Shown: positions 1,449 to 34,382 of the stretch, in pieces | How the letters are laid out: the number at the start of each line of letters is the position of its first letter | Position numbering within the stretch: position 1 is the stretch's first letter | DNA from: a virus | Taxonomy: Duplodnaviria; Heunggongvirae; Uroviricota; Caudoviricetes | Virus record (IMG/VR): IMGVR_UViG_2565956731_000001 | Reading direction: 5' to 3' (one strand) | Length of the DNA: 37,002 nucleotides | Notes under the pieces: generated by a model | Told to the model about the DNA's origin: nothing | Seen by the model: the letters and a program-made list of their open reading frames with translations, nothing else | Database searches by the model: none | Translations under genes and position numbers: made by a program

Positions 1449-2018
1449 CTATTTAACATACTTGACTGTTAAACTTATAATTTTACCAATTATTTCAATG
1501 TCTTCTATCTTACATTCAAAGGCTCTGTTTCCACCCTCGACGAAGATTCTTCCACCGGGTAAACGAGTAATGTCACGGATCGTTATTTCGCCATCAATAC
1601 TTATTACCCATTTACCATCACGTATATCATCAAATTCCTTATCACAAATAAATTCAGAATTATTATCTGTGATTACAAAAAGATTCTTGAATGCCGACGG
1701 TAGAAATTCTCTATCGAAAATATAAAAACCGTCTTCACACAAGGCCCCATCAGATAATACATATTTAGCAACTTCCATAGTATTTGTATTACCTGAAGTT
1801 TGCTTTGAACCATGCCCGGTTGTGAGCCAATTAAGCGAGGTGCCTGTTTCAAGGGCGCACTGGATTACCCATTCTGCTGGGAATGAGTCACGCATGTAGC
1901 GTGTGGCGAGTGTACTTTTAGAGATTCCTAAATGATCGCACAACGCCTGTCGAGTCTTGAATCCATAAGCTTCTACCATGCGCTCTATGGCGCCTCGTCC
2001 GCCTTTCTCCAAATTCAT
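1449..2018 (-). CDS. cI: 186-type CI immunity repressor
   Basis: About 190 aa with N-terminal HTH region and C-terminal domain resembling 186 CI; position between int and apl; ATG at 2016-2018 with GGAG 5 nt upstream (alternative GTG at 2022-2024). Confidence 0.8.
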   Translation of the reverse strand: MNLEKGGRGAIERMVEAYGFKTRQALCDHLGISKSTLATRYMRDSFPAEWVIQCALETGTSLNWLTTGHGSKQTSGNTNTMEVAKYVLSDGALCEDGFYIFDREFLPSAFKNLFVITDNNSEFICDKEFDDIRDGKWVISIDGEITIRDITRLPGGRIFVEGGNRAFECKIEDIEIIGKIISLTVKYVK

Positions 2019-2028
2019 GGTCACTCCA

Positions 2029-3948: not shown

Positions 3949-4802
3949 GCACCATCCTGAAATGGGCGGGAAATAAAACTGCCATAATGTCCGAACTGAA
4001 AAAACATCTTCCTGCTGGCCCGCGACTGGTTGAACCTTTCGCGGGTTCCTGTGCTGTGATGATGGAGACGGATTATCCCAGCTATCTGGTTGCGGATATT
4101 AATCCTGATTTAATCAACCTCTATAAAAAGGTTGCCGCTGATTGTGAATCGTTTATATCTCGCGCCAGAGTTTTATTTGAGATCGCAAACAGGGAGGTGG
4201 CTTATTACAACATAAGGCAGGAGTTTAATTACTCAACTGAAATTACTGATTTCATGAAAGCGGTATATTTCCTGTATCTCAATCGTCACGGTTACCGTGG
4301 TTTATGTCGCTATAACAAGAGCGGGCATTTCAACATTCCCTACGGTAATTATAAAAATCCGTATTTCCCTGAAAAAGAAATTCGCGCATTTGCAGAAAAG
4401 GCCCAGCGAGCAACGTTTATCTGCGCCAGCTTTGATGAAACGCTGGCGATGTTGAAGGCGGGGGATGTGGTGTATTGCGATCCGCCGTATGACGGTACGT
4501 TTTCCGGCTATCACACTGACGGCTTCACTGAAGATGACCAGTATCACCTAGCATCTGTTCTTGAACATCGGTCATCAGAAGGACATCCGGTCATTGTTTC
4601 TAACAGTGACACATCCCTGATCCGTTCGCTGTATCGCAATTTTACTCACCACTACATCAAGGCAAAACGGAGCATCGGTGTGGCAGCTGGCGAGGGTAAA
4701 TCAGCAACAGAAATCATTGCTGTTTCCGGGCCGCGCTGCTGGGTGGGATTTGATTATTCGCGTGGCGTGGATAGTTCTGCCGTGTACGGAGTACGTGCAT
4801 GA
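3945..4802 (+). CDS. DNA N6-adenine methyltransferase (Dam-like)
   Basis: DPPY catalytic motif and N-terminal AdoMet-binding region (LKWAGNK...EPFAGS); ATG 3945 with GGAGG RBS. Confidence 0.8.
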
Positions 4803-7213
4803 GTCATGCCGATATGAACAACTGCTGCGGCTTTAACGAAGCTGCCGCATCGTTCTCATGGAACAGCTCGAAAAAGGCCATTAACCCTTATCTGGACCCG
4901 GTGGAAGTTGCGCCGGTTTCTACGCTTTCAAACCTGATCACTCTGTACGCTGCCGATAACGAGCAGGAACAGCTGCGCCGTGAGGCGCTGAGTGATCAGG
5001 TCTGGGAGCGTTATTTCTTTAATGAATCCCGTGATCCTGTCCAGCGCGAAATGGAACAGGATAAGCTCATTAGTCGGGCAAAGCTGGCGCATGAGCAGCA
5101 GCGTTTTAATCCGGATATGGTCATTCTGGCGGACGTCAACGCCCAGCCTTCCCATATCAGCAAGCCGCTGATGCAACGTATTGAATACTTCAGCAGCCTG
5201 GGCAGGCCAAAGGCTTATTCCCGCTATTTACGTGAGACGATTAAGCCATGTCTGGAACGACTGGAGCATGTACGCGACAGTCAGCTATCTGCATCTTTTC
5301 GCTTTATGGCAAGCCATGAAGGGCTGGACGGCCTGCTGATCCTGCCTGAAATGAGTCAGGATCAGGTGAAACGCCTGTCCACCCTGGTAGCTGCGCATAT
5401 GAGTATGTGCCTTGATGCCGCTTGTGGCGATTTGTATGCCACCGATGACGTTAAGCCAGAAGAAATCCGCAATACATGGGAAAGGGTGGCAGCGGAAACC
5501 CTGCGTCTGGATGTCATCCCGCCTGCGTTTGAGCAACTCCGTCGGAAAAGAAACCGCCGTAAACCCGTGCCCTATGAACTCATTCCGGGTTCGCTGGCGC
5601 GTATGTTGTGCGCCGACTGGTGGTATCGGAAATTATGGAAGATGCGTTGCGAATGGCGGGAAGAGCAGTTGCGTGCTGTCTGCCTTGTCAGCAAAAAAGC
5701 ATCTCCCTATGTCAGCTATGAAGCCGTGTTGCATAAACGTGAGCAGCGCCGTAAGTCGCTGGAGTTTTTCCGTTCTCATGAACTGGTGAACGAAGACGGC
5801 GACACGCTAGACATGGAGGATGTGGTAAACGCCAGCAGCAGCAACCCTGCGCATCGCCGCAATGAGATGATGGCCTGTGTTAAAGGTCTGGAGCTTATCG
5901 CGGAAATGCGCGGTGACTGCGCCGTTTTCTACACCATCACCTGTCCGTCACGTTTCCATTCCACGCTAAATAACGGCAGGCCCAACCCGACCTGGACAAA
6001 TGCGACGGTAAGACAAAGCAGCGATTATCTGGTCGGTATGTTTGCTGCATTTCGTAAGGCGATGCACAAAGCCGGGTTGCGCTGGTATGGCGTGCGGGTG
6101 GCTGAGCCGCATCACGACGGCACAGTTCACTGGCACCTGTTGTGTTTCATGCGCAAAAAAGACCGCCGCGCCATTACAGCATTGTTGCGTAAGTTTGCTA
6201 TCCGTGAAGACCGCGAGGAGCTGGGCAATAACACGGGGCCGCGCTTTAAGTCTGAGCTGATTAACCCGCGCAAAGGAACGCCGACAAGCTACATAGCGAA
6301 ATACATCAGTAAGAACATTGATGGGCGTGGTCTGGCTGGCGAGATCAGCAAGGAAACGGGTAAATCTCTGCGTGATAACGCTGAATACGTGAATGCCTGG
6401 GCGTCTTTGCATCGTGTTCAGCAATTCCGCTTCTTTGGCATTCCGGGGCGTCAGGCTTACCGTGAACTGCGATTGCTGGCTGGTCAGGCGGCAAGGCAAA
6501 AGGGGGACAAAAAAGCAGGTGCGCCGGTACTGGATAACCCGCGCCTTGATGCCATCCTGGCTGCTGCTGATGCTGGTTGTTTTGCCACCTACATCATGAA
6601 GCAGGGCGGCGTACTGGTTCCCCGTAAATATCACCTCATCAGAACCGCTTATGAAATCAACGAAGAGCCGACCGCCTATGGCGATCACGGCATTCGTATT
6701 TATGGCATCTGGTCACCCATTGCAGAGGGCAAGATCTGCACTCATGCAGTGAAGTGGAAAATGGTTCGTAAAGCCGTTGACGTTCAGGAGGCGGCAGCCG
6801 ACCAGGGCGCTTGCGCCCCTTGGACTCGTGGCAATAACTGTCCCCTTGCTGAAAATTTGAACCAACAAGGGAAAGACAAATCAGCTGATGGGGATATCAG
6901 AACGGACATTACCCGCATGGATGACAAGGAGTTGCACGAATACCTGCACAGTATGAGCAAAAAAGAGCGCCGGGAACTGGCTGCAAGGTTACGCCTGGTG
7001 AAACCGAAACGGCGTAAAGACTACAAACAGCGAATTACAGACCATCAGCGACAGCAGCTCGTCTATGAACTGAAGTCCAGAGGATTTGATGGCAGCGAGA
7101 AAGAGGTCTATTTACTCCTTCGTGGCGGCAGTATTCCGTCAGGAGCAGGCCTGCGTATCTTCTATCGGAACCAGCGTTTGCAGGAAGATGATAAGTGGCG
7201 GAACCTGTATTAA
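4799..7213 (+). CDS. A: Replication initiation endonuclease gpA (rolling-circle initiator)
   Basis: 804 aa; conserved YIAKYISK active-site tyrosine region; position after the early operon. Confidence 0.9.
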
Positions 7214-7305
7214 TTACGCGGGTTAACAATTCGTGCTCTTAATAATACCAGGCATTTCAGGCTGATGAACGTAAAAAAACGTTTTACATCAGTAAGATTA
7301 TTATA

Positions 7306-7325
7306 TACTGTAAATATAAACAGTG
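7306..7325 (+). promoter_or_regulatory. LexA box (SOS operator) TACTGTAAATATAAACAGTG
   Basis: Matches the CTGT-N8-ACAG consensus (CTGT 7308-7311, ACAG 7320-7323) with AT-rich spacer; about 40 bp upstream of the 7366 ORF. Confidence 0.7.
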
Positions 7326-7365
7326 GTTATGTATACAGTATTGCTTTGGTGTCATAGGAGGAAAG

Positions 7366-7554
7366 ATGCAGGACTATTTTTTGGAGTCTTTGAAGCTCCA
7401 GCGCATTGATTTTTTTCTTAAGCTTGTAGCGGCTAGTGAGTGTAGTGATGAAGAGAAGGGGCTGGCTCTGCAGTGGGTATCTGAATTGACTGATGAACTC
7501 ATGGCAAAAATCAGAACCCACGAATACAACCGCTCAATGGATGTCATCAGTTGA
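7366..7554 (+). CDS. Small SOS-controlled protein (possible N-terminal part of a Tum-like antirepressor)
   Basis: ATG 7366 with AGGAGG RBS immediately downstream of the LexA box. Confidence 0.5.
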   Translation: MQDYFLESLKLQRIDFFLKLVAASECSDEEKGLALQWVSELTDELMAKIRTHEYNRSMDVIS

Positions 7555-7564
7555 GGTGACTTTT

Positions 7565-7798
7565 ATGCGCATTGAAATAATGATCGATAAAGAGCAGAAG
7601 ATTAGCCAGTCTACCCTGGACGCCCTTGAATCCGAGCTTTACCGCAATCTGCGCCCCCTGTATCCCAAAACGGTAATTCGCATTCGCAAAGGTAGCTCTA
7701 ACGGTGTGGAACTAACCGGACTGCAACTGGACGAAGAAAGAAAACAAGTGATGAAAATTATGCAGAAGGTGTGGGAAGACGACAGCTGGCTGCATTAA
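7565..7798 (+). CDS. DinI-family protein (Tum-like antirepressor domain / SOS modulator)
   Basis: Translation MRIEIMIDK...KVWEDDSWLH aligns by eye with E. coli DinI (MRIEV...QETWESADDWF); ATG 7565 after GAGGTGA. Confidence 0.65.
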   Translation: MRIEIMIDKEQKISQSTLDALESELYRNLRPLYPKTVIRIRKGSSNGVELTGLQLDEERKQVMKIMQKVWEDDSWLH

Positions 7799-7930
7799 GA
7801 AACGTTGCTGGCGTCTGAACTTGCTTCTGGCGTCAGCAAGGTTGAACAACGAGCCCTTGCGAGGCGTTAGCTCTGTAGTGCATGTCTATGCCGCATGAGA
7901 TCGCATGATCGTTTGAGGATCGTTTTTGCT

Positions 7931-7958
7931 AAGGCCCGCCAGAACTGGCGGGCTTTTG
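7931..7958 (+). terminator. Rho-independent terminator of the SOS module
   Basis: GC stem GCCCGCC(7934-7940)/GGCGGGC(7947-7953) followed by TTTT. Confidence 0.6.
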
Positions 7959-8002
7959 CGTAGATCATGCAGGTGCATGAAAACCACTACATAAAGCGGG
8001 CA

Positions 8003-8021
8003 GGCGTGGCGGGGATACGAG
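8003..8021. other. Candidate cos site (19-nt cohesive-end sequence)
   Basis: GGCGTGGCGGGGATACGAG followed by CGCGCGCTGA resembles the P2 left end GGCGAGGCGGGGAAAGCAC TGCGCGCTGA as recalled from memory; lies between the A-side genes and Q as in P2. Confidence 0.45.
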
Positions 8022-8212
8022 CGCGCGCTGAAAAGGTTTAGCTAAATTTTTGTCGATAGGTGGTTTTAGTTGTTATACAAAAGTGTCACTGGTTTTGTTT
8101 TGAGCATTTGTGGTGCTAAAAATATTTTTTTTGGTTCAAAATTACCTTAAAAAGGTTTTTTTGGTGTATGATTGTTTGAAAAGTGGTTCGGTTTTGCCAT
8201 AAGGGTGGTTAG

Positions 8213-9295
8213 ATGATAAACGTTACAAACGAAATGCTCATTGATGTTGTCAGTGATGCTCTTACCGGGAAGAGGGAAAGTCTCCTCATGCGGTTGCGGA
8301 TTATGGCAAAAAAACTAAAAAAAGAATCTCCTGAATTAGCGGGTAAATTAGAAGATTTACTTATTAATACAGGTGGCGCAATTGCAGTCGAAAGGGCTAA
8401 TCCAGTTGTTCCTAAAATAACACCTGTTGATGCGGATACAAGACAAAAGCTGCTAGTTGAAACATATCCTGTGGTCATTGATGTTGAACCTGTTTGGCCA
8501 ACAAAAACTGATGTTCAACTGAATCGATTTGTGGCTGAGTGGGAAATGAAAGAACGCCTTTATAAAGAAGGGTTGCATCCGTCCAAATCTCTTCTTATGG
8601 GAGGACCACCCGGTGTGGGGAAGACTTTGGCTGCAAAGTGGCTCGCTTTTAAACTCGATATGCCATTGTTAACATTAGATCTCGCAAGTGTAATGAGTAG
8701 CTACTTGGGGAAAACGGGTAATAATATTAAGGCAGTCCTCAATTATGCTTCGTCATTCCCTTGTGTACTGCTTCTTGACGAATTTGATGCGATTGCTAAA
8801 AAAAGGGATGATGCAACAGATGTTGGAGAACTAAAAAGATTAGTTACAGTATTATTGCAAGCAATTGATGAATGGCCAAATACGTCTGTTCTTATAGCAG
8901 CAACTAACCATGCGGAGCTGCTTGATCCTGCTGCATGGAGAAGATTCGATCGAGTTATTGATTTTGAATATCCAACACAAGACCTAATGAGAAGATATCT
9001 CTGTTCTAAAAATATTGGAGATAGCTTATCGTACTATATTGCTACAAAACTCGAAAAAGTTTCATATGCAGTTCTTGAGAGAGCTATAAATCAAGCTAAA
9101 AGAAATGCCATTATAGAAGATATTCCTTTAAGTTCAGCTTTAATTGATGAGTTGTTAGATGGCGTGTCACTTGATGATGTTATAAAAAACATGTCAAACA
9201 ACAATGTATCACAAAGAAAAATCGCTTTAGATTTGGGGATTTCAAGGTCACAAGTACGTAAGGTTTTGACGGTTGAGGATGAAGACAATGAATGA
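8213..9295 (+). CDS. AAA+ ATPase (classic AAA clade), cargo gene
   Basis: Walker A GGPPGVGKT, Walker B LLLDEFD, sensor/Arg region ATNH...RRFD; AT-rich by eye; RBS AAGGGTGG before ATG. Confidence 0.85.
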   Translation: MINVTNEMLIDVVSDALTGKRESLLMRLRIMAKKLKKESPELAGKLEDLLINTGGAIAVERANPVVPKITPVDADTRQKLLVETYPVVIDVEPVWPTKTDVQLNRFVAEWEMKERLYKEGLHPSKSLLMGGPPGVGKTLAAKWLAFKLDMPLLTLDLASVMSSYLGKTGNNIKAVLNYASSFPCVLLLDEFDAIAKKRDDATDVGELKRLVTVLLQAIDEWPNTSVLIAATNHAELLDPAAWRRFDRVIDFEYPTQDLMRRYLCSKNIGDSLSYYIATKLEKVSYAVLERAINQAKRNAIIEDIPLSSALIDELLDGVSLDDVIKNMSNNNVSQRKIALDLGISRSQVRKVLTVEDEDNE

Positions 9296-11480
9296 TAAAA
9301 ATATGCTTCTTGGCTATGGTGAAACACTAACTAACCCTGTTAAACTTAACAGAGGTGGAGGTGAAAAGAATAAACCTTACTCTTATTCAGAAAATAAACC
9401 AGTGATATCTGCTCAACTGGAAGAGTTGATTGAGGAAATTAATACCCTTCCATTGTTAGCAATGCCTGAAGGTAAGGCTGTAGCAAAATTTGTTTTGCAT
9501 CCGGCATTCTTAGCAAAAAGTTATTTTCCAGTAAGTCTTTTTGAGCGATTTTCCCTAGAAAGCATAGGCAGTAAGGCTGTAAAAGTAAAACCTAGAAAAG
9601 ATATTAAAAAAAGAGGGCGAAAAGAGGAATACACTACAGCGTGTATTTATGTTTCTGGCAAAAAAGAAAGTTTTCAATCATTCTTAGACTCTGTAAATCA
9701 AGATACCCTAACGAAAGGGCAGCAAAATGATTTTGTCACCTTAGAAAATATTTCAATACTGGAAGTTTCAGATAAAGTAAAAACGATTAATAGCAATGAA
9801 GTTATGAGTATTGAGGTCGCCTTACATACTCCTGATACAATTTCCTCTATTGTCGATAGTTTTGAAGTTTTTGCTTCGCAAAATGGTGCTGTTATAGATA
9901 AGGCAAGAAGTATAAAGGTTAAGGGGCTAACCTTTATGCCTATTAAGGCTAGTAAAGATGTAGCTTTAAAAGTTGCAGAGTTTTCATTTCTCAGGACTTT
10001 GAGAGAACTTCCTGAATTAAGGCTAAGTGAGCCTGTTATATCACGTTCTGTGATTCAAACATCTAACCTTAGTTTACCATCTGAAGGAGCGGTAAACCCA
10101 CACATAAAGGTTGCCATATTCGATGGTGGATTGGGGATCGATGATTTCAATCCTTGGGTAACAGAGTACACTTTCAACGGTAATGCTAGTACTAATGCAA
10201 AACTTCTTTCTCATGGACAGGATGTCACCTCTACTGTGTTATTTGGTGTTCTTGGCTCTGAAACGGAAAAATTAAGTGTTCCTTATTGTAATATTGACCA
10301 TTATCGTGTACTGGATTCTAATGTTAATAACTCAGATGTCGATCTTTTTGACGTTCTGATCCGTATTAAAAGTGTATTAGAACAAAAAAAATATGATTAT
10401 ATCAATCTGAGCTTAGGACCTAGATTACCTGTTGATGACGATGACGTGCATGTGTGGACCTCAACTCTTGAGGAGATACTTGCATCAGGAGAAACACTTT
10501 GTACTGTCGCGGTTGGAAATGATGGTCAGCTGCCTGCCAAGTTAAATCGAATTCAACCACCTGCTGATTTAGTTAATGGTCTGTCAGTAGGTGCAGCAAC
10601 CTCTTTATCTGATAGTTGGGAAAGATGTTCTTACAGTTGTATTGGTCCTGGACGAAGCCCTGGCTTTGTGAAGCCTGATGGAGTTGCATTTGGAGGACAT
10701 TCTGATGAGCCATTCCAGGTATACAGCCCTATGGTTAATGGTCTTGCCCGCACTGCGGGGACTAGCTTTTCAGCTCCATTAGTCCTGAGGCAAGCAATCG
10801 CGTTAAGTGCTTCTCTAAATTACAACATTACACCACTTACGGCTAAAGCTCTGCTTATACATCATGCGGAGAGCAATAATATCAATCGTGCTGAAGTTGG
10901 TTGGGGACGATTTCCTCATGATCTTAGTGAAGTAATATTTTGTGATGATGATGAAGTTAAAGTTATATATCAAGGTACTTTAAAACCATCACAACACATG
11001 CGAGCACCTATTCCGTTTCCAGATGTACCTATGCGTGGATGTGTAAATTTAAGAGCGACATTCTGCTTTTCCAGTCCTGTAGATGCGGAACATCCTTTGA
11101 ATTATACAAGAAGCGGTCTAGAAGTAACCATGAGAAAAGGTGTTTCAGATAGTTCCGGGTTAACGTTTCCTCTTTTTAATCTAAAAAATGTTTATGCAGA
11201 TGAAAATGAGCAACGTGTTGATGCACATAAATGGGAGACTACGTTAAGAAGTGAACACAAATTTAAACCGAATGAGCTGACAAACCCATGCTTTGATATT
11301 ATCTACTATGGTAGAGACTGTGGTATGCCTATTGATGTTGACGAGTTAGAAGAACTACCATATGTTCTTGTCGTGACTTTATCTGCTGAAGAAATGCCGG
11401 ATTTATATAACCTAATTAGGCAGAAATATCAAACCTTACAGCCTATCCAAGTTCAACAGCAAATTATGTTACGTACTTAA
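9288..11480 (+). CDS. Subtilisin-like serine peptidase (S8 family) with N-terminal domain of unknown function, cargo gene
   Basis: Catalytic triad motifs in D-H-S order: VAIFDGGLG, SHGQDVTST, GTSFSAPLV; start overlaps the ATPase stop by 8 bp (alternative ATG 9279). Confidence 0.8.
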   Translation: MNDKNMLLGYGETLTNPVKLNRGGGEKNKPYSYSENKPVISAQLEELIEEINTLPLLAMPEGKAVAKFVLHPAFLAKSYFPVSLFERFSLESIGSKAVKVKPRKDIKKRGRKEEYTTACIYVSGKKESFQSFLDSVNQDTLTKGQQNDFVTLENISILEVSDKVKTINSNEVMSIEVALHTPDTISSIVDSFEVFASQNGAVIDKARSIKVKGLTFMPIKASKDVALKVAEFSFLRTLRELPELRLSEPVISRSVIQTSNLSLPSEGAVNPHIKVAIFDGGLGIDDFNPWVTEYTFNGNASTNAKLLSHGQDVTSTVLFGVLGSETEKLSVPYCNIDHYRVLDSNVNNSDVDLFDVLIRIKSVLEQKKYDYINLSLGPRLPVDDDDVHVWTSTLEEILASGETLCTVAVGNDGQLPAKLNRIQPPADLVNGLSVGAATSLSDSWERCSYSCIGPGRSPGFVKPDGVAFGGHSDEPFQVYSPMVNGLARTAGTSFSAPLVLRQAIALSASLNYNITPLTAKALLIHHAESNNINRAEVGWGRFPHDLSEVIFCDDDEVKVIYQGTLKPSQHMRAPIPFPDVPMRGCVNLRATFCFSSPVDAEHPLNYTRSGLEVTMRKGVSDSSGLTFPLFNLKNVYADENEQRVDAHKWETTLRSEHKFKPNELTNPCFDIIYYGRDCGMPIDVDELEELPYVLVVTLSAEEMPDLYNLIRQKYQTLQPIQVQQQIMLRT

Positions 11481-34170: not shown

Positions 34171-34382
34171 CGTTAAAAAACAGTGCTTCTAACATCATGA
34201 TTTTAAACAGCTTAAATTTCAGGCAACAAAAAACCCATCAACCTTGAACCGAAATGGCGGGGTTGATGGGCTCCACAAAATGGGGACATCAAAGAAAAGC
34301 AGTGGCACTAATTAAGACTGATGCCCTGCGGAAAAGTTCTGCGGTTGTGCAAAAAAATTTCATTTTCAGGGCAACTTCAGTT

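Follow-up and report, generated by a model that had tools for sequence, protein, structure and literature searches.

The question raised by this locus is whether two small ORFs, lying behind a LexA box in a prophage genome and ending in a DinI-like gene, form an antirepressor system for prophage induction as the tum gene does in phage 186, and whether they are two genuine genes or one broken gene. In the window, by which the whole analysed stretch of 37,002 nucleotides is meant, the module very probably represents the SOS prophage-induction operon of a Fels-2-like prophage of the P2/186 family, in the split tumA-tumB form. This split module is already known from phages PSP3 and Fels-2, and its presence here is real but ordinary.

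The 37-kb window was found to hold a Fels-2-type prophage belonging to the P2/186 family. The tumA-tumB module is located directly downstream of replication gene A, and the gene order matches that of 186, PSP3 and Fels-2. A megablast search with positions 7200-8000 gave matches in 56 phage records, including Fels-2 at approximately 97% identity. Of 5426 complete E. coli genomes, 1125 contain the module, and the split form of tum is spread over several genera. The features on which the analysis is based are the following.

1-1053/1131, minus strand: int
1449-2024, minus strand: cI, a 186-type immunity repressor and the presumed target of TumA, assigned by Pfam domains and similarity to 186 CI
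between cI and gene A: an apl-like ORF and cII, then DUF5347, DUF2732, zinc-finger and Dam methylase genes
4799-7213: replication gene A (gpA), assigned by Pfam Phage_GPA
7283-7288, plus strand: putative -35 of the tum promoter, the hexamer TTTACA, read from the sequence
7304-7311, plus strand: putative -10, either TATACT or TACTGT, which LexA box 1 overlaps, proposed by analogy to 186 p95
7306-7325, plus strand: LexA box 1, TACTGTAAATATAAACAGTG, a perfect CTGT-N8-ACAG, from a consensus scan and a weight matrix
7321-7340, plus strand: LexA box 2, CAGTGGTTATGTATACAGTA, weaker and predicted, from the weight matrix and conservation
7356-7361, plus strand: ribosome binding site (RBS) of tumA, AGGAGG, read from the sequence, with a 4-nt spacer to the ATG
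7366-7554, plus strand: tumA, a predicted antirepressor gene of 62 codons, by homology to the N-terminal half of 186 Tum; start ATG at 7366, stop TGA at 7552-7554
7553-7559, plus strand: RBS of tumB, GAGGTGA, overlapping the tumA stop codon, read from the sequence
7565-7798, plus strand: tumB, encoding a 77-aa DinI-family protein (Pfam DinI), the counterpart of the C-terminal half of Tum
7801-7843, plus strand: stable hairpin just past tumB, without a U tract (-23.5 kcal/mol, z -4.3)
about 7931-7962, plus strand: intrinsic terminator with an 11-pair G+C-rich stem, a GAAC loop and UUUU (-23.4 kcal/mol, z -4.2)

An earlier note on this DNA had described a near-consensus LexA operator about 40 bp upstream of a 62-aa ORF with a strong RBS, followed 10 bp further in a different frame by a 77-aa DinI-family ORF, at a position equivalent to that of 186 tum. 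These elements were all recovered: the module comes right after gene A, the place of p95-tum in 186, and box 1 lies 40 nt upstream of the tumA ATG. With up to three mismatches to the 20-nt LexA consensus, box 1 was the sole match in the 37 kb, compared with none in 100 shuffles. It was also the best 20-mer of the window (23.6 bits) with a LexA weight matrix, a rough tool built from E. coli SOS sites, and it is kept in all six Fels-2-clade relatives examined (loci L001 and L006-L010). More generally, in 12 out of 12 homologous loci examined, from several genera of Peduoviridae, a LexA box precedes tumA or tum by 18-48 nt.

With the same rough matrix, box 2 was the third-best 20-mer of the window (15.4 bits), and it is present at an identical offset in six of the six Fels-2-clade loci. 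The 16-nt cores of the two boxes (7308-7323 and 7323-7338) share one base. In box 2 the CTG motif has a G at the place of its nearly invariant C, and on its own this box may therefore bind LexA poorly. By its architecture the operator is a double overlapping SOS box of the colicin type, whereas only a single LexA box was present in 186, PSP3, a Yersinia phage and the ESSI-2-type phages among the loci compared. For Fels-2, a double SOS box is not mentioned in the literature that could be searched.

For the promoter, 186 p95 served as the model, in which the annotated -10 coincides with the leading six bases of the LexA site. In the window TTTACA is placed 17 nt upstream of TACTGT (7306-7311), comparable to TTCACA-18 nt-TACTGT in p95. 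A strict consensus scan for sigma-70 promoters gave no match at tum.

By blastn, the operator matched 226 plasmid records, among which small mobilisable plasmids were numerous. Two plasmids were inspected, and in these the match fell in the promoter region of a colicin N gene and of a pesticin gene, respectively. Over 42-49 nt, window positions 7300-7348 shared 86-90% identity with these promoters, and the matching stretch takes in GTGG, the non-consensus left half of box 2. Convergence may explain the resemblance: with an overlap of one nucleotide, box 2 can only have a left half that starts with G. The layout of two overlapping boxes is the same, but the controlled genes are unrelated, bacteriocins on the plasmids and an antirepressor here. 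The double SOS boxes of colicin genes bind two LexA dimers and prevent untimely expression, with zero basal expression and expression in only a small subpopulation (PMC2994835). By this analogy the operator of the window would also accommodate two LexA dimers, and the tum promoter of the Fels-2 type would be more tightly repressed than 186 p95.

TumA is 98% identical to STM2728 of Fels-2 and 98-100% identical among the Fels-2-type relatives compared. Pairwise BLASTP gave no alignment with 186 Tum and no similarity to PSP3 TumA. A relationship to 186 Tum emerged when alignments were compared. One alignment held 28 diverse relatives of ORF1, collected by exhaustive phmmer searching, and the other 20 proteins related to residues 1-70 of 186 Tum; hhalign matched the two with a probability of 96.4% (E 1.1e-9), residues 1-45 pairing with residues 1-45. 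Full-length 186 Tum also matches PHROG 698, the PHROG to which TumA belongs (E 2.4e-5), and PHROG 8554 is matched by both proteins. ORF1 is thus classified, from its sequence profile, as a TumA-type protein and a homologue of the antirepressor half of Tum, the link existing at the profile level only.

The AlphaFold2 model of TumA is a two-helix hairpin (pLDDT 88). A search of the PDB with the ORF1 family profile yielded no sequence relative among solved structures, and ORF1 is matched by no Pfam, NCBIfam or PADLOC model. PHROG 698 is labelled 'unknown function', and RefSeq lists the protein as 'hypothetical protein', next to stray names such as 'levan regulatory protein'. Two minus-strand ORFs over tumA (7327-7521 and 7374-7547) were dismissed, as the codon-level constraint fits the plus-strand frames.

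TumB starts with the ATG at 7565, 10 nt past the tumA stop codon. A weak hairpin at 7537-7566 (-9.4 kcal/mol, z -2.3) partly covers its RBS. The protein matches Pfam DinI (PF06183) over profile positions 1-63 of 63 with 81.3 bits (cut-off 24.2, E 6.6e-23) and aligns with E. coli DinI (PDB 1GHH), a member of the same fold family, over its full length. It is 100% identical to STM2726.1 of Fels-2, 78% to TumB of PSP3 and 41-42% to 186 Tum over its C-terminal half (about aa 71-146). At its start, TumB lines up with the GTG that is annotated in 186 as the internal initiation codon of a truncated, DinI-like form of Tum. Against the NCBIfam DinI equivalog NF007893, TumB reached 42.7 bits, which fails the cut-off of 111; being far under this value, it is considered a phage paralogue and not an orthologue of chromosomal dinI.

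The earlier note had left two possibilities for the arrangement, a true two-gene module or a frameshifted tum, of which only the former was retained. A single fused Tum of about 146 aa was not found in the window, which instead encodes two ORFs in different frames separated by a stop codon and 10 nt, and the module is therefore placed in the tumA-tumB variant of PSP3 and Fels-2 and not in the 186 form. As an alternative, the pair could be a tum gene that recently suffered a frameshift or nonsense mutation, a decaying pseudogene of which one or neither half is functional; this fits with 186 having both halves in one polypeptide of 146 aa, similar to the combined 139 aa here. The comparative data refute it. 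Relative to homologues, dN/dS was 0.06-0.08 for tumA and 0.06-0.10 for tumB, at a dS of about 0.9-1.4. The distance between the tumA stop and the tumB start is 10, 11 or 12 nt among relatives and the relative frame is +1, +2 or 0 depending on the phage, while both ORFs stay intact. Because both ORFs are under purifying selection and gap and frame vary, the split is regarded, on these sequence comparisons, as a genuine two-gene arrangement. In addition each ORF has its own RBS, the distribution given above, over about one in five complete E. coli genomes and over several genera, argues against a recent accident, and 186 itself starts a DinI-like product internally at the position that corresponds to the tumB start. 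The check for a fused ORF in related phages, which the earlier note had proposed, pointed in the same direction: 66 representatives of the TumA family were found in 1.84 billion proteins, nearly all of them free-standing with about 55-75 aa, and none was fused to DinI. Likewise, the proteins most closely related to the N-terminal half of 186 Tum are mostly free-standing 'Tum proteins' of 63-90 aa. Decay of a single gene is thus regarded as extremely improbable. A reading in which the operon is mainly a host-directed modulator of the SOS response, with the DinI-like protein as payload and ORF1 as an unrelated small protein or a translational leader, finds some ground in the Gifsy prophages, where LexA-controlled DinI homologues can be deleted without effect on induction (PMC3121763), and in the lack of Pfam, NCBIfam and PADLOC matches and of a PHROG function for ORF1. 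It is nevertheless very improbable in view of the profile-level homology of ORF1 to the N-terminal half of Tum, a constraint on ORF1 as strong as that on tumB, the ESSI-2-type phages, in which tumA and its LexA box occur without any DinI gene, and the report that the PSP3 counterpart is an antirepressor (PMC3121763).

The genuine tumA-tumB pair was compared with the systems that have been described. The STM2728/STM2726.1 operon of Fels-2 in Salmonella Typhimurium LT2 is essentially the same element, with about 97% DNA identity from the promoter through both genes; the double LexA box and the position after gene A are common to both. In the Fels-2 record, STM2728 is 'hypothetical' and STM2726.1 is assigned to the DinI family as 'similar to TumB of PsP3'. 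Fels-2 differs from the window in the orf97 homologue STM2726 that follows its tumB, in its CI, which is only 41% identical, and in the cargo past the terminator, where the window carries the IetA/IetS (IetAS) defence system. In Salmonella TA100, which carries Fels-2, STM2727 of the Fels-2 STM2726-2728 operon was induced 5.5-, 11.1- and 14.8-fold by rising doses of the mutagen MX, and it was among the significantly responding genes of the LexA regulon (PMC2225428). For this near-identical module, Fels-2 is also cited as the cause of the lethality of lexA null mutations (Bunny et al. 2002, as cited in PMC3121763).

PSP3 shares the design of a small antirepressor gene, a few bases and a DinI-like gene of 77 codons, with a LexA box and a location after gene A. 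Its TumA is only about 14-22% identical and falls in PHROG 1993 instead of 698, it has a single LexA box, and its CI is a protein of 286 aa with a duplicated N-terminal domain. In GenBank, PSP3 tumA is described as 'similar to 5' end 186 tum; UV induction of prophage' and tumB as 'similar to dinI and 3' end of 186 tum'. According to Lemire et al. 2011 (PMC3121763), who refer to Bunny et al. 2002 and to a personal communication of G. E. Christie, tum is split by a stop codon in Fels-2 and PSP3 and the upstream gene of PSP3 is the antirepressor, a role which in that paper rests on the personal communication.

In 186, SOS derepression of p95 leads to production of Tum, which sequesters CI (PMC7708051). 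The binding of Tum to CI is reversible, blocks operator binding and is needed for induction by UV and mitomycin (Shearwin 1998, as cited in PMC7708051). The window resembles 186 in a promoter after gene A that is predicted to be LexA-repressed, with the LexA site over the putative -10, in a 186-type CI, and in the correspondence of the two halves of Tum, the N-terminal one to TumA and the DinI-like C-terminal one to TumB. It differs from 186 p95-tum, where a single polypeptide with additional internal starts is made, the LexA box is single and orf97 follows.

The CI of the window contains the Pfam domains Phage_CI_repr and Phage_CI_C, with Peptidase_S24 under its cut-off, and is 33% identical to 186 CI over 175 aligned residues. 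By these domain assignments the repressor is a CI of the 186 type and not a self-cleaving repressor of the lambda/LexA type. The interpretation of the module as a Tum-like antirepressor system, already offered in the earlier note, is supported in this sequence comparison by its position, the LexA box, the homology of TumA and TumB to the halves of Tum and the type of CI. We infer that TumA acts on the CI of the window itself, cognate recognition being assumed.

An alternative concerns this pairing. The operon could be SOS-induced while TumA is not active on its own CI following a swap of the immunity region, leaving a prophage that is not SOS-inducible and a module that is either functionless for induction here or acts only in trans on co-resident prophages of the Fels-2 type. 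TumA is 98-100% conserved, while the CI of the window is 41% identical to that of Fels-2 and at most 56% to any CI in 50,697 phage records; moreover, some Tum-bearing Salmonella prophages, BTP5 among them, express tum and give no detectable phage (PMC7067206), and crosstalk by trans-acting antirepressors is seen among the Gifsy prophages (PMC3121763). Such a mismatch is nonetheless unlikely. A TumA that is 100% identical occurs in the window and in phages vB_EcoM-813R9, Kp4860-7, Kp4845-2 and Cartapus, and the CI proteins of these five are 65-83% identical in the N-terminal domain and 28-48% in the C-terminal domain, compared with 37-49% for the N-terminal domains of CI from 186 and PSP3, two phages with other types of TumA. 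Conservation of the CI N-terminal domain among phages with the same TumA would fit a conserved contact surface for TumA. The occurrence of one identical TumA with many CI variants in numerous intact-looking genomes would also be unexpected if the majority of the pairings did not work. In a comparison of 11 phages, the identity of TumA followed that of the CI N-terminal domain (Spearman rho 0.77) more than that of the C-terminal domain (rho 0.32), the pairs being non-independent. This does no more than suggest a contact between TumA and the N-terminal DNA-binding domain of CI, and the correlation could reflect nothing more than slower evolution of that domain or mosaic recombination.

For a prophage induction operon acting on its own CI, the following course of events is proposed. 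In the lysogen, LexA would occupy the double operator at 7306-7340, over the -10 and the presumed start region, and keep the operon tightly off. Upon DNA damage, active RecA would promote self-cleavage of LexA and the operon would be transcribed. The two-helix TumA of 62 aa would then bind the 186-type CI, probably at its N-terminal DNA-binding domain, and block its binding to DNA, leaving CI uncleaved. Derepression of the early lytic promoter would lead to excision and lytic growth, and TumB, the DinI paralogue with its own start codon, may bind RecA filaments and tune the SOS signal. The elements, the homologies, the purifying selection and the conservation of the LexA box were computed here; the damage induction of Fels-2, the sequestration of CI by Tum and the antirepressor role of PSP3 tumA are taken from the literature on homologous modules and would apply by analogy.

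Downstream of tumB, the strong terminator that the earlier note had placed after the second ORF holds in part: a stable hairpin does follow the stop codon, but it lacks the U residues, and the canonical intrinsic terminator is situated about 135 nt beyond the tumB stop, outside the 7306-7798 region described in that note. It was revealed by folding and not picked up by a strict consensus scan. The hairpin at 7801-7843 occupies the position of t95a in 186 and is possibly a partial terminator or an RNA-stability element. Up to 7870 the sequence is also conserved in SEN8, SopEPhi and ST437-OXA245phi4.1. The window lacks orf97, and 83 nt (7797-7879) stand in place of the STM2726 block of Fels-2. 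Homology to Fels-2 resumes at 7880-8028, terminator included, a segment that in Fels-2 is found downstream of the orf97 homologue.

The module would decide when a very common class of enterobacterial prophages, present in about one fifth of complete E. coli genomes, leaves lysogeny. Such prophages carry defence systems, IetAS in this case, and virulence cargo in relatives such as SopE-phi. The practical value lies in annotation, as the profile evidence and the literature on PSP3 and Fels-2 identify TumA, for which Pfam, NCBIfam and PADLOC have no model, as a probable antirepressor. The double SOS box and the combination of one TumA with many CIs would be modest extensions of the model of SOS induction and cross-induction; neither has been described for the Fels-2 clade in the searchable literature. 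Taken jointly, a colicin-type double box and an invariant TumA that recognises the N-terminal surface of many heteroimmune CIs form a tentative proposal, which we consider possible and somewhat doubtful. If true, the double box implies unusually tight repression with induction restricted to a subpopulation, and possibly a regulatory cassette common to Col plasmids and P2-like prophages, and TumA would serve as a 'master key' through which different Fels-2-like prophages of a polylysogen are induced together.

These two points are minor leads, as is a possible LexA-controlled int promoter. With the weight matrix, another strong LexA box was detected at 1083-1102, upstream of int; both this box and box 2 of the tum operator (7321-7340) had been overlooked in the earlier note. 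If the int promoter (1078-1106) is indeed repressed by LexA, the prophage would possess an SOS regulon of two promoters.

A second strong LexA box was located in the window, upstream of the integrase gene int, and a small open reading frame was found between int and the immunity repressor gene cI.

1083-1102, plus-strand sequence TACTGTATGTATAACCAGTG: LexA box, 23.3 bits
1242-1433, minus strand: 63-aa ORF between cI and int, N-terminus signal-peptide-like

On the minus strand, the LexA box occupies the spacer between the hexamers of a promoter close to consensus (TTGACA-16/17 nt-TAAAAT, 1078-1106), just downstream of which follow, on the same strand, a GGAGG ribosome-binding site and the probable start of int (ATG at 1053, MAVRKL...). 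Based on this placement of the box within the promoter, just upstream of the ribosome-binding site and start codon, int seems to be transcribed from a LexA-repressed promoter of its own, distinct from cI. The region was found in 963 of the 5426 complete E. coli genomes and also in Klebsiella phage 4LV2017. In Fels-2, Cartapus, MLG42, SopEPhi and 186, by contrast, cI directly adjoins int, leaving no space for a promoter of this kind.

The 63-aa ORF gave matches to PHROG 6000 and to NCBIfam PRK10040, two families of unknown function, and looks like a moron inserted at the cI-int junction. This junction is also occupied in phage 813R9, but by another cargo gene. The repressor itself varies among the relatives: in PSP3 CI (286 aa, cI at 119-979 of the locus compared), the N-terminal HTH domain is present in two tandem copies, and in Klebsiella phage Kp4860-7 an in-frame upstream extension encodes a second segment resembling the N-terminal domain.

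The tum locus of the window consists of tumA (predicted antirepressor) and tumB (DinI family). The locus of Escherichia phage 500465-1 (799-1431) has 98% DNA identity to the window, yet its TumA protein is only 90% identical, with a dN/dS of 0.41. Stop codons lie within the expected tumB frame and the annotated DinI gene is longer (1114-1431). The low TumA identity, the interrupted frame and the longer DinI gene together suggest indels or sequencing errors in this record. In ESSI2_ev040 and Cronobacter phage ESSI-2, gene A is followed by a LexA box and a homologue of tumA with 41-49% identity, but neither phage has a DinI-like gene. The ESSI-2 homologue is without any annotation in its record.

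At the tumA-tumB junction a weak hairpin was predicted.

7537-7566, plus strand: hairpin, -9.4 kcal/mol, z -2.3

Within it lie the stop codon of tumA and a portion of the ribosome-binding site of tumB, and translation of tumB could be coupled to that of tumA through this structure. Its conservation is doubtful, judging from the intergenic sequence, which varies between the relatives.

Directly 3' of the tum terminator, the prophage carries the IetA and IetS anti-phage defence system as cargo.

8213-9295, plus strand: IetA, AAA ATPase (E 6.7e-84)
9273-11480, plus strand: IetS, S8 serine protease (E 4.9e-48)

This position is a variable slot with other genes in the relatives; phage 500465-1 has a gene for a TIR-domain protein here instead.

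No tRNA gene was present across the window. A full-length sRNA gene was identified that is probably a landmark of the flanking host DNA or of the attachment region, at the prophage's far end.

34225-34303, minus strand: RybB sRNA gene (Rfam RF00110, 105 bits)
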